Shown one piece after another: positions 5,842-7,207 of a stretch of DNA of 64,000 nucleotides (within the stretch, counting starts at the first letter, position 1; every line of letters begins with the position of its first letter). A model generated the notes under the pieces. The model was not told the DNA's origin. It did not search any database and worked only from the letters and a program-made list of their open reading frames with translations. The stretch is from NCBI RefSeq assembly GCF_022846255.1, contig NZ_AP025682.1; one strand, given 5' to 3'. The position numbers and the translations under genes are program-made. This DNA is from Escherichia coli. GTDB taxonomy: Bacteria; Pseudomonadota; Gammaproteobacteria; Enterobacterales; Enterobacteriaceae.

Positions 5842-5932
5842 TATTTAAAGAAGAGCTCGTACGAAAGTGCGAGTTTTTTTTCGTCTATTGCATACACCGG
5901 GGGGATGAGAAGCCCCGACCGGGGATACCTGG

Positions 5933-6619
5933 TTAATGCAACGGTTCACTCTTTGTCGCCGCGACTAATGGGCGAATTTTGTCACGGGTATCCCAGACCG
6001 GAGGGATTTCCTCCAATTTAGTGACAGAAGCTCGTACAAAAGGCACCCGAGCAAGAGTCATAATCGTATCCAACCAATGGTCACGAATAATGCGATCTGC
6101 CCTTTCATGACTCGGATCATCCAGCTCAATAACACCGACTATTTTATTGTTCTTCTTTGAAACCAGCACATAATCCATTGCCATGCCATTATAAATAGCA
6201 AAGAAACGCTTTCTTTCTTCTTCGCTAAACTCGGGTTGTTCTGGAAAGTTGATCAAGCGCCCCAGAGAGACCTGGCAATGGATATGGCAATAATGTCCAA
6301 ACCATTTCTCCAGATTATCGAAATAGATTTTCTCACAACGCGTAATTAACCACTCTTTTCCTTCCAATAAAATGCCTTCGGCAACCATTCCCTGAAATAA
6401 CTCATCTCGTTCTTGCCAACGAGAATCACGATAGGTTTTCTGCGGTGTATAGCTCCTTGTCGACGCCTTAGCTGCAGGGGGAGTTGCAGATGAAGGGACT
6501 GGTTGCGATTTAGAGATGATCACCGATGAGGCAACTTTTCGGAGTGTCAATTTTCTGGCAACAACAAAACCGGCGACAAATGCAATTGTCAAACAAGTTA
6601 CAAAAGCCATAAAGCTCAT
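5933..6619 (-). CDS. Membrane-anchored protein with DUF2726 / NERD-like nuclease-fold domain (tentative)
   Basis: 228-aa ORF with one N-terminal TM helix and a C-terminal region (DYVLVSKKNNKIVGVIELDDPSH...RIIRDHWLD) resembling DUF2726 / PD-(D/E)xK-like proteins. Sits beside tRNA-Ser with AT-rich flanks. Family call is from memory. Confidence 0.55.
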   Translation of the reverse strand: MSFMAFVTCLTIAFVAGFVVARKLTLRKVASSVIISKSQPVPSSATPPAAKASTRSYTPQKTYRDSRWQERDELFQGMVAEGILLEGKEWLITRCEKIYFDNLEKWFGHYCHIHCQVSLGRLINFPEQPEFSEEERKRFFAIYNGMAMDYVLVSKKNNKIVGVIELDDPSHERADRIIRDHWLDTIMTLARVPFVRASVTKLEEIPPVWDTRDKIRPLVAATKSEPLH

Positions 6620-7159
6620 AATTAATTTTCACCTATCCATGTTGATTATATTTCATTACCAACGTTACTCGCTGTAGCGTGTTACATGCCAACAATTCAA
6701 CGATCAATATATAGTTAGTATCATGTTTTTATTATTACAACCACCCCTATTTTGCCATTGCGGCTTGCCTTCCACAAAAAATAACAACACAAAATATTAG
6801 CCAAAGAATTAATTAAGATTAACCTGACATTTTTAATGTTATCCCTAAAAAATATAATCAGGGGAATGTATTCGGTGTTAATCAGTCAGTCAAATTATGG
6901 TCCATTATTGATGGAACCTCATACGCAAAATTGGCACCAGACCTCCTGTACAGGTTGAATGGCTGAAAAAAGATAGGCAGATGCTCGATTTTTGGGCTTC
7001 TGAAAGAAAAACTCTCCGCACTGGCGGTATTACACTGGTCTGGTGCTATGACGACAAATGCCCGGTAAGAGTATCTAAACCTGAATTCATTTCAGCTTAT
7101 CAACACGCTCAAAGTCGCCCCCTGAACGTTAACCTGAAGTGAAAATCTTTGCTGTTAAT

Positions 7160-7190
7160 GAAATAAAACAAAGCCCGGTTCGCCCGGGCT
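7160..7190 (-). terminator. Rho-independent terminator downstream of phoH
   Basis: GC hairpin agcccggttcgcccgggct followed on the minus strand by a T-rich run, just 3' of the phoH stop. Confidence 0.55.
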
Positions 7191-7207
7191 CTGCACCGAT
7201 AATACAC

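Follow-up and report, generated by a model that had tools for sequence, protein, structure and literature searches.

A conserved DUF2726 gene stands in place of the pgaABCD block between phoH and serX in about one fifth of complete Escherichia coli genomes

The window analysed here, a stretch of 64,000 nucleotides of E. coli DNA (contig NZ_AP025682.1), contains a gap of 1,366 bp between serX and phoH (5842-7207), within which lie a single ORF of 228 aa (5933-6619, minus strand; the sole long ORF in the gap) and 588 bp of AT-rich non-coding DNA. These measurements agree with the initial annotation, which had described an interval of about 1.4 kb holding one ORF and AT-rich non-coding DNA. The GC content is 0.30-0.33 at 6600-6900, compared with 0.52 for the whole window. 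The features of the locus are:

5754-5841, plus strand: serX, tRNA-Ser(GGA) (ARAGORN; Rfam tRNA, 53.8 bits; annotated as tRNA-Ser in strain A37)
5842-5924, plus strand: serX terminator hairpin and T-run, then the remainder of one RtT-type repeat unit (alignment with K-12, O111 and A37)
5925-7164, no strand: haplotype-specific segment, 1,240 bp, GC 0.41 (homology break points from alignments and BLASTN)
5933-6619, minus strand: DUF2726 gene, 228 aa, with predicted membrane anchor, linker and Vsr-like PD-(D/E)xK domain (ORF; Pfam PF10881; RefSeq 'DUF2726 domain-containing protein')
6557-6613, minus strand: predicted single N-terminal transmembrane helix, codons for residues 3-21 (hydrophobicity, charge bias, model)
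6005-6352, minus strand: DUF2726 / PD-(D/E)xK core, codons for residues 90-205, carrying E96, D149, E165, D167, D168, H171, R176, R179 and D180
6620-7164, minus strand: AT-rich region upstream of the DUF2726 gene (sequence; GC 0.30-0.37)
6981-7142, plus strand: 53-aa ORF, probably not a gene (frame broken in relatives)
7168-7194, minus strand: phoH intrinsic terminator (terminator scan, 11-bp stem then T-run; alignment)
7208-7996, minus strand: phoH, 262-aa form (RefSeq annotation in strain A37; ORF list)
8422-8439: Pho box upstream of phoH (match with 2 mismatches)

The start of the 262-aa form of phoH was taken from the RefSeq annotation of the 99.6%-identical strain A37, and the open frame itself reaches 8272. 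Within 5925-7164 the ORF list contains nothing longer than 60 aa apart from the DUF2726 gene, and no other feature is annotated for this segment in A37 and O111. The 53-aa ORF at 6981-7142 was examined as a possible second gene but dismissed: in O111, E. albertii and Escherichia sp. MOD1 its frame is broken by indels of lengths not divisible by three, it had no PHROG or PADLOC match, and it is unannotated in A37 and O111.

The region upstream of the DUF2726 gene (6620-7164) is conserved in Escherichia, with its first ~60 nt kept in Salmonella too. It carries a Shine-Dalgarno sequence (AGGTG, 6630-6634) and a perfect -10 element (TATAAT, 6645-6650) of a predicted promoter, both read on the minus strand, and further promoter-like matches at 6893-6865 and 6758-6731. 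No conserved coding frame was found in this region, and an Rfam scan identified no sRNA family in the AT-rich spacer. Co-regulation with phoH is unsupported because the DUF2726 gene is not preceded by a Pho box, the one good match in this part of the window being that before phoH at 8422; a strong phoH terminator also separates the two genes.

Comparison with K-12 delimited the segment. The DNA at 5842-5924 is common to the K-12 haplotype, and BLASTN matched window positions 5823-5924 to five tandem units in K-12, an RtT sRNA being annotated at the matching site in both K-12 and O111, while homology to K-12 restarts in the alignment at 7165, the base of the phoH terminator hairpin. The intervening segment is allelic to the 11.56-kb ycdU-ymdE-IS3-dgcT-pgaABCD block of K-12 (K-12 locus positions 18327-29888 stand in its place in the BLASTN comparison). 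The whole phoH-serX interval of K-12 MG1655 measures 11,689 bp and contains RtT-type repeats (three annotated RtT sRNAs), ycdU, a ymdE fragment, IS3, dgcT and pgaABCD; the gene content given for K-12 in the initial annotation (pgaABCD, ycdT, which is dgcT, IS3, ymdE and ycdU) was therefore correct, whereas the length of about 13 kb given there was not. Alignment bore out that pgaABCD, ycdT (dgcT), the IS3 copy, ymdE and ycdU are all missing between phoH and serX in the window, and tblastn with K-12 PgaA, PgaC, PgaD, DgcT and YcdU detected no pga, dgcT or ycdU homologue within the 64 kb. Since pgaABCD is absent from this locus, the strain should not make PGA from there, as had been anticipated.

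E. coli without pga at this locus have already been published: strains Tob1, Fec101 and B-8638 possess a phoH-csgG region without ycdT, pgaABCD and the IS element but with serX, ghrA, ycdX, ycdY and ycdZ (Cimdins et al. 2017, PMC5635171), which is the same state as in the window, with no pga, ycdT or IS3 between phoH and serX. The passages of that paper that describe the locus make no mention of the DUF2726 gene filling the gap, of its orthologues in E. albertii and Salmonella, or of the allele frequency.

The 228-aa protein matched Pfam DUF2726 (PF10881) in hmmscan over residues 90-205 (model positions 3-116 of 126, E 7.2e-17, 61.8 bits), and its top structural neighbours in AFDB50 were all annotated DUF2726. 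The Pfam match and a hydrophobic N-terminal segment (Kyte-Doolittle 2.43 over residues 3-21) support the earlier description of one membrane-anchored protein with a DUF2726 nuclease fold beside serX. The label 'NERD-like' did not hold, the Pfam scan returning DUF2726 and a sub-threshold DruA match (E 0.15) and no NERD match. NCBIfam and PADLOC scans of the protein gave no match, PHROGs returned one unnamed family only, and a profile search against PDB sequences returned nothing. The AlphaFold2 model (mean pLDDT 88) has a helix at residues 3-27, and a linker of ~45 residues, rich in Pro, Ser, Thr and Ala, appears disordered in both sequence and model. There are no Lys or Arg residues before the transmembrane segment and four in the next 15 residues, a bias found in 95 of 97 homologues; by the positive-inside rule, the domain is predicted to lie on the cytoplasmic side (N-out/C-in), tethered to the inner membrane.

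Steczkiewicz et al. 2012 (PMC3424549) placed Pfam DUF2726 in the PD-(D/E)xK superfamily together with Vsr and DUF559. The alpha-beta-beta-beta-alpha-beta core of the Vsr/DUF559-like branch is present in the 228-aa protein, the model of which superposes on Vsr, I-Bth0305I and NGO0050, and the protein shares the DUF2726 family pattern E...D...ExDD..H..R..RD. Among 127 homologues E96 is invariant and D149, E165, D167, D168, H171, R176, R179 and D180 are at least 90% conserved, and all of these residues occur in the window protein, where the acidic and His residues sit at the canonical active-site positions of the Vsr/DUF559-like branch. The putative metal-binding residues (E96, D149, E165, D167/D168 and H171) are intact, and from their placement in the model the conserved acidic and His residues may have catalytic roles. 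Two differences from better-known relatives are apparent: Vsr and DUF559 proteins are soluble whereas the branch to which the window protein belongs has an N-terminal membrane anchor, and Asp takes the place of Lys in the classical (D/E)xK motif. A literature search found no experiments on any DUF2726 protein.

Of 5,426 complete E. coli genomes, 1,051 (~19%) carry the 1.24-kb segment (5925-7164) and 4,386 carry pgaBC; the copy of the segment in the enteropathogenic strain E2348/69 is 98.4% identical to that of the window. The two counts together overshoot 5,426 by only 11, so that segment and pgaBC are almost mutually exclusive among complete E. coli. Eight of the 11 are hybrids, here called E8-type, in which a truncated pgaD is joined to the phoH-proximal 227 bp of the segment (window 6922-7148). 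The E8-type hybrids are compatible with an ancestor that bore both blocks.

The gene also occupies this position in other taxa. The order in the E. albertii type strain is efeB-phoH-DUF2726-serX-ghrA-ycdX (protein 88% identical at the amino acid level), phoH and the DUF2726 gene are adjacent in Escherichia sp. MOD1-EC7003, and Salmonella enterica has the order putP-phoH-DUF2726-rve-serX-ghrA-ycdX with an intact 219-aa ORF (71% amino acid identity), and is indexed in thousands of assemblies. STM1127 was rejected as the Salmonella locus tag, since it denotes a MurR-type regulator of a ManNAc island (PMC11745405). A scan of species representatives found no locus in any other named Escherichia species or in any Salmonella representative, and the gene is therefore also polymorphic or lost elsewhere.

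Synonymous divergence from E. albertii was 0.41 for the DUF2726 gene, 0.34 for phoH and 0.74 for ghrA; relative to Salmonella, dS was saturated for the gene and its flanks alike. The dN/dS ratio was 0.14-0.20 over the full length and fell to 0.04-0.09 on residues 63-228 (in comparisons with E. albertii, Salmonella and O111), which points clearly to purifying selection. ORF 5933-6619 is a real gene and not a chance frame: more than 1,000 genomes have it annotated, its conservation extends across genera, and its dN/dS lies well below 1. It might still be a decaying or non-functional relic: its outright replacement in 81% of E. coli shows that it is dispensable, databases also hold truncated or partial versions and one allele with an 8-aa in-frame deletion, and G162 and H181 of the window allele are C and R in the other orthologues. 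This is extremely improbable, given that the full-length frame is intact across the window, O111, Escherichia sp., E. albertii and Salmonella, that every family-conserved residue is present in a domain with the low dN/dS given above, and that the main 90%-identity cluster contains 2,055 full-length member sequences.

The positional orthologues next to phoH in Salmonella enterica, E. albertii and another Escherichia species, together with the lack of an integrase, repeat or scar, tell against the suggestion in the initial annotation that the segment is a remnant islet or small accessory gene; the ORF is an ordinary orthologue in its usual position, and absence of pga is routine, at ~19% of complete E. 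coli. The islet proposal, in which the DUF2726 gene would be leftover cargo of a decayed integrative element integrated at serX, draws on the position of the segment next to a tRNA gene known as an integration hot spot (serX islands include an integrase-bearing one in O111, SpLE1 in Sakai and SPI-19 in Salmonella, PMC2907695), on its low GC (0.41 vs 0.52 for the window), and on the occurrence of relatives at 45-55% identity on ICE-like elements and in T6SS clusters. SpLE1 of O157 Sakai and SPI-19 (PMC2907695) do share the chromosomal neighbourhood and low GC with the segment, but serX islands of this type carry integrases and a duplicated tRNA 3' end, and the segment has neither. No integrase, transposase or att-type repeat was detected in or around 5925-7164, no flanking direct repeats were found around it, and the 17-nt tRNA 3' end occurs once in the 64 kb with up to 2 mismatches allowed. 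Islands at serX insert between the tRNA and the DUF2726 gene, leaving the latter beside phoH, the side on which it lies in E. albertii and Salmonella; its distribution is not sporadic in a manner conflicting with vertical descent, and dS follows the flanking genes. Base composition is atypical but non-discriminating, since the pga block of K-12 is AT-rich too (0.456). Nor does the segment hold T6SS gene remnants: origin as the relic of a T6SS island was rejected after TssM, TssA, TssF, TssG, TssJ and VgrG queries gave nothing above chance. An islet origin is thus very unlikely and, for any recent event, largely refuted; if the gene was ever acquired, the acquisition predates the Escherichia-Salmonella split. 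The window allele is a common, old alternative state of the E. coli locus, that is, ordinary variation and not a new island.

The window probably carries the older of the two phoH-serX alleles. Allele 1, that of the window, is the state common to E. albertii and Salmonella enterica, comprising 1.24 kb with one DUF2726 gene and its own AT-rich promoter region, and a strain bearing it would be without PGA synthesis, the DgcT cyclase and YcdU. Allele 2, that of K-12, would have arisen when the 11.6-kb block of ycdU, ymdE, IS3, dgcT and pgaABCD replaced allele 1 between the same two break points, so that the pga block supplanted the DUF2726 gene in most E. coli, with alleles presumably exchanged by homologous recombination through their conserved flanks. 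Base composition gives no direction to the change, because both alleles are AT-rich (0.456 for the pga block vs 0.41 for the DUF2726 segment). The polarity is based on three outgroup lineages. The argument of Echeverz et al. (PMC5464674) that pgaABCD was vertically inherited in Enterobacteriaceae and lost in Salmonella counts against an older DUF2726 allele; our data add a nuance to the view that Salmonella lost pga, in that Salmonella, E. albertii and these E. coli share another conserved gene there. A homology search with PgaD returned E. coli almost exclusively, with one usable Citrobacter locus; in Citrobacter sp. NCU1 pgaABCD does not adjoin phoH.

Alternatively, both blocks may once have stood together (serX-ycdU...pgaABCD-DUF2726-phoH), each allele arising by loss and the window being a deletion derivative. 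The fusion of pga DNA to the phoH-proximal 227 bp in the eight E8-type genomes is in keeping with this, as is the left break point (5924/5925), which falls inside an RtT-type repeat that might mediate deletions. However, no genome was seen to have the two complete blocks side by side, the counts of the two complement each other almost perfectly, and E. albertii and Salmonella have the DUF2726 gene without pga at the site. The E8 junction, moreover, cuts pgaD at a microhomology and looks secondary and illegitimate, IS1 having also removed much of the E8 locus by deletion. We therefore consider joint ancestry followed by loss quite improbable and retain replacement of the older DUF2726 allele by the pga block as the preferred history.

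In practice the effect is modest but real. Roughly one fifth of completely sequenced E. coli, EPEC E2348/69 and O111/O26-type strains among them, are entirely without pgaABCD and the DgcT diguanylate cyclase, and therefore findings on PGA-dependent biofilms in K-12 do not carry over to them. The DUF2726 protein has a predicted membrane anchor and a nuclease-like fold, is kept by purifying selection and counts relatives in ICE-like regions and T6SS operons; screens for effects on phage, conjugation or T6SS could reasonably include it as a small target.

As to function, we tentatively propose that the protein may be an active nuclease, its tether confining it to nucleic acid found on the cytoplasmic side of the inner membrane. 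Putative targets would be DNA entering by phage injection or conjugation, or following T6SS-mediated killing, and the tether would also hold the putative nuclease off the chromosome. The closest parallel is SNIPE, a membrane-bound E. coli anti-phage nuclease in which the tether prevents chromosome cleavage (Saxton et al. 2025, bioRxiv 10.1101/2025.11.03.685801). Both proteins share a layout in which one N-terminal transmembrane helix, its N-terminus outside, holds a cytoplasmic nuclease domain at the inner membrane; for the DUF2726 protein the topology is predicted and the nuclease a candidate one. They are not homologous: SNIPE consists of DUF4041 and a GIY-YIG nuclease and binds the phage tape-measure protein and ManYZ, whereas in the DUF2726 protein the PD-(D/E)xK domain is accompanied by no more than a short helical segment, with no DUF4041 or GIY-YIG in the Pfam scan and no family matched in PADLOC-DB 2.0. 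Fusions of DUF2726 to AbiJ N-terminal domains occur among predicted abortive-infection proteins (PMC3710099). It is distinctly unlikely that the fuller picture applies, in which a stand-alone tethered nuclease destroys incoming nucleic acid by SNIPE-like logic with an unrelated fold, or is coupled to T6SS, and the site is an old polymorphism offering the nuclease or PGA/DgcT, never both. The long positional conservation of the gene is unusual for a defence gene and counts against a defence role, as do the empty PADLOC and NCBIfam scans, the absence of true plasmid or phage matches and the failure to find a conserved partner gene.

Conflict-type contexts of relatives speak for the nuclease proposal: those at 45-55% identity occur in ICE-like regions with TraU, TraG_N, Integrase_1 and ArdC and in T6SS clusters. 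The subfamily does not appear to be plasmid- or phage-borne, since tblastn against plasmids recovered only three Mb-scale records, apparently mislabelled chromosome, and tblastn against phages gave no match. A search for a conserved partner gene found none: the lipoprotein that precedes the copies in ICE-like regions is missing from all other loci; for three more distant homologues, on short contigs, the context comparison was uninformative.

These contexts bear on the rather unlikely alternative that the protein is a T6SS-associated accessory factor, or an RNA-directed enzyme at the membrane, and not a guard against incoming DNA. A homologue with 53% identity forms the X of a tssM-tssA-X-tssF-tssG-tssJ-vgrG core operon, translationally packed between its neighbours, with its ORF overlapping the tssA stop and tssF beginning 28 nt downstream; Erwinia homologues adjoin vgrG-PAAR and Rhs toxin genes. 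Yet T6SS-linked placement is confined to 50-53%-identical homologues in Citrobacter, Pantoea and Erwinia, the T6SS-embedded copies are essentially one cluster common to two assemblies with one copy frameshifted, and the E. coli, E. albertii and Salmonella intervals are without T6SS genes or remnants. In structure comparison the FAST/RAP module of FASTKD4 gave the best match to the protein, and further RAP domains, a class that binds RNA, came next; scores as high as those of the RAP domains were reached by the DNA-acting proteins Vsr, I-Bth0305I and TnsA.

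The only tRNA gene of the window lies between ghrA and an ORF of 228 aa that precedes phoH, and the features of this interval are as follows:

4583-5521, minus strand: ghrA, left of tRNA-Ser(GGA)
5754-5841, plus strand: tRNA-Ser(GGA) (serX), identified with ARAGORN
5933-6619, minus strand: 228-aa DUF2726 ORF, right of tRNA-Ser(GGA)
7208: stop codon of phoH, right of the 228-aa ORF

The closest complete genome, E. coli A37 (99.6% identity across 5600-7400), is annotated with exactly this order (ghrA, tRNA-Ser, 'DUF2726 domain-containing protein', phoH, efeB, efeO, efeU). The initial annotation had flagged the serX-phoH gap (5842-7207) as missing the pga region and holding a single DUF2726-like gene instead, and BLASTN and alignments against K-12 confirmed this: the gap measures 1,366 bp in the window and 11,689 bp in K-12 MG1655, where it contains RtT-type repeats (with three annotated RtT sRNAs), ycdU, a ymdE fragment, IS3, dgcT (ycdT) and pgaABCD. 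The break points were located at 5924/5925 and 7164/7165, with K-12 identities of 98.1% for 1-5924 and 96.6% for 7165-12018; the 1,240 bp between them (5925-7164, the islet) have no counterpart in K-12, in which 11,562 bp (the pga block) stand instead. The left break point is within an RtT-type repeat unit, 8 nt past the ORF stop codon, and the right one is the base of the phoH terminator hairpin. No homologues of pga, dgcT or ycdU were found across the 64-kb window.

The unit formed by the tRNA 3' end and terminator, annotated as an RtT sRNA (window 5823-5924; 18224-19027 of the K-12 locus), occurs as a single copy in the window, as five tandem copies in K-12 and as two to three copies in O111, and the haplotype break point falls within this repeat. 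Further along, the efeU-sized ORF (11085-11924, minus strand) is unbroken at 279 aa in the window and in A37, whereas K-12 efeU is annotated as frameshifted, and the putP-efeU spacer is shorter in the window (112 bp unaligned versus 436 bp in K-12). A match to Rfam Ysr251, a Yersinia antisense sRNA, at 7213-7400 (plus strand, antisense to the phoH 3' end; 174 bits, above the gathering score) probably just reflects phoH conservation.

Among 5,426 complete E. coli genomes, the 1.2-kb islet (5925-7150) was present in 1,051 (1,043 carrying at least 80% of it), nearly always as one chromosomal copy, and K-12 pgaBC in 4,386. These counts total 5,437, only 11 above the number of genomes, and 8 of this excess come from partial hybrid loci such as the one seen in E. 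coli E8; the phoH-serX site therefore acts as a two-allele locus, and islet-allele genomes almost never hold pga anywhere. Carriers of the islet include EPEC E2348/69, at 98.4% identity, and strains of the O111:H8 type, at about 94%, and carriers of pga include Nissle-derived SYNB1934, O157:H7 and K-12. In O111 an integrase-bearing element is inserted between serX and the DUF2726 gene, which still adjoins phoH. Cimdins et al. (2017, PMC5635171) describe a phoH-serX interval missing pga, ycdT and an IS in some E. coli of commensal and uropathogenic origin, and the pga-less allele is real but ordinary, frequent and reported before in that source. Plasmids also gave pgaBC matches, at 6 places, and the 80-90% identity band comprised 76 genomes.

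Protein searches placed the gene in a small group of orthologues, with identities of 95% in E. coli, 71% in Salmonella enterica and 40-55% in more distant Enterobacterales. The E. albertii type strain has the order efeB-phoH-DUF2726-serX-ghrA-ycdX (88% aa identity), Escherichia sp. MOD1-EC7003 shares the phoH-DUF2726 order, and the Salmonella order is putA-putP-phoH-DUF2726-(rve)-serX-ghrA-ycdX-ycdY-ycdZ-csgG, with a T6SS island situated past the DUF2726 gene in SPI-19-type Salmonella. A species-representative scan returned no locus from other named Escherichia species and none from the Salmonella representative. In the assembly collection the Salmonella gene is indexed under its shorter call in 3,781 blocks, although the complete frame of 219 aa is intact. 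Most Salmonella assemblies carry a 151-aa call from an internal Met (6001-6456 in each of loci L007, L008 and L009), and in L008 the full 219-aa frame (5797-6456) is unbroken, membrane anchor included.

The islet segment has neither integrase nor transposase and no flanking direct repeats, and the window contains just one copy of the tRNA 3' end. The suggestion of a remnant islet was accordingly not upheld: the one gene it holds is an orthologue conserved in position beside phoH in E. albertii and Salmonella, not an island remnant. An ordinary orthologue in place together with a frequent pga-less allele, which the initial annotation had itself named as evidence against its proposal, is what was found.

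The ORF has a Shine-Dalgarno sequence (AGGTG) 10 nt 5' of its ATG and a perfect TATAAT 25 nt 5' of the ORF, within DNA whose conservation extends from E. coli to Salmonella; no Pho box was found in front of the gene. It is separated from phoH by a 588-bp spacer, with GC down to 0.30, and by a strong phoH terminator. A 53-aa ORF in this spacer was rejected as a gene because its frame is not conserved. An HMM search of the 228-aa protein matched Pfam DUF2726, as the initial annotation had anticipated, with no match in NCBIfam or PADLOC, and an exhaustive HMMER search gave 634 cluster representatives at E <=1e-3, only 13 of them at <=1e-30. In a set of 127 diverse homologues E96 never varies, and conservation reaches at least 90% for L103, D149, E165, L166, D167, D168, H171, R176, R179 and D180, every one being present in the window protein. 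The overall dN/dS is 0.14-0.20, with about 0.5 for the anchor and linker and 0.04-0.09 for residues 63-228 (versus E. albertii, Salmonella and O111); the gene is kept by selection.

Synonymous divergence of the DUF2726 gene resembles that of its neighbours, with dS between the window and E. albertii of 0.41 for this gene, against 0.34 (phoH) and 0.74 (ghrA), and saturation against Salmonella for the gene and neighbours alike. In Citrobacter sp. NCU1, the nearest PgaD-bearing non-Escherichia genome recovered, pgaABCD (4231-10414 of locus L027) lies between a chemoreceptor (MCP) gene and dctPQM, away from phoH, and adjacency of pga and phoH is therefore unconserved outside E. coli in the single case seen. 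On the simplest reading, the DUF2726 gene would have occupied the phoH-serX interval for a long time, and the pga block would have taken its place in most E. coli. This reading is compatible with Echeverz et al. (PMC5464674), who argue for an old presence of pga in Enterobacteriaceae, as it claims only that the position was not the ancestral home of pga. Less probably, both blocks may once have stood together and one was then lost, a history that the hybrid loci, in which a truncated pgaD is joined at a CAAAA microhomology to DNA resembling window 6922-7148, would allow. The E8 locus (8751-9279) carries an IS1-eroded pga block with its truncated pgaD fused to the 227 bp of the DUF2726 haplotype that lie nearest phoH, and a similar partial match occurs in about 8 complete genomes. 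Three further caveats bear on the resident-gene reading: the species-representative scan gave no locus in the other Escherichia species and the Salmonella representative, AT-richness is common to both alleles (GC 0.41 for the islet, 0.456 for the pga block), and the pga block can move. The last is shown by locus L029 (2311-12375), a diverged dgcT-pgaABCD-phoH copy (PgaD 89%) with transposase genes on its flanks, so that the whole module appears mobile; its neighbour looks like a raffinose-utilisation operon, judged from Pfam domains.

A strongly hydrophobic 19-residue segment is present in 108 of 126 full-length homologues and starts within the first 20 residues in 88. Lysine and arginine are concentrated just after the N-terminal segment (mean 3.9 in 15 residues) and nearly absent before it (mean 0.28) in 95 of the 97 homologues that have one; by the positive-inside rule, this bias would place the domain in the cytoplasm, tethered to the inner membrane by a flexible linker. 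The best guess, made with rather low confidence, is that the protein may be an active nuclease whose tether would limit it to nucleic acid as this reaches the inner membrane. Its layout, a membrane anchor with a predicted cytoplasmic domain, is the same as that of SNIPE, a membrane-bound GIY-YIG nuclease of E. coli that cleaves phage DNA as it is being injected and attacks the chromosome without its anchor (bioRxiv 10.1101/2025.11.03.685801), but the two proteins are not homologous. No experimental work on any DUF2726 protein was found in the literature.

The main alternative to a nuclease guarding the inner membrane is a T6SS-linked or RNA-directed role. In Citrobacter sp. 18056 (6821-7480 of locus L017) and Cand. 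Pantoea deserta (7007-7656 of locus L019), a 53%-identical homologue is tightly packed inside a T6SS core operon (tssM-tssA-DUF2726-tssF-tssG-tssJ-vgrG), and the homologue's ORF and the tssA stop codon overlap; in Pantoea the copy carries a frameshift. Our literature search found no T6SS-associated DUF2726 gene. Homologues at about 50% identity in Erwinia sp. HDF1-3R (8001-8636 of L006) and Erwinia sp. ErVv1 (3127-3678 of L015) lie 130 bp 5' of a vgrG-DUF2169-PAAR-phospholipase-ankyrin effector cluster in the vicinity of SymE toxin genes; judged from ORF translations only, they also look to be 3' of an Rhs-type toxin C-terminus. Relatives of the window protein also occur in ICE-like regions with TraU, TraG_N, Integrase_1 and ArdC, and Anantharaman et al. 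(PMC3710099) describe DUF2726 fused to AbiJ N-terminal domains. Relatives thus occur in conflict-type settings, and a membrane-tethered, nuclease-fold DUF2726 protein with T6SS-operon and ICE-like links in other Enterobacterales is mildly interesting. Against a classical defence role stand the lack of a PADLOC match, of a conserved partner gene and of occurrences on plasmids or phages, together with the long positional stability of the gene.

The paralogues in ICE-like regions (45-55% identity; 6001-6636 in loci L024 and L025, 6001-6438 in L026) lie between TraU/TraG_N transfer genes and Integrase_1, with ArdC nearby; each has a lipoprotein gene 5' of it that is absent from the other loci, and one of these regions belongs to Salmonella enterica. 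Two further records, a MAG labelled Collinsella sp. with a 95% E. coli-type DUF2726 gene and a locus labelled Chryseobacterium sp. 18061 that is nearly identical to the Citrobacter T6SS locus, carry enterobacterial DNA and seem to be products of mis-binning or contamination in public assemblies.
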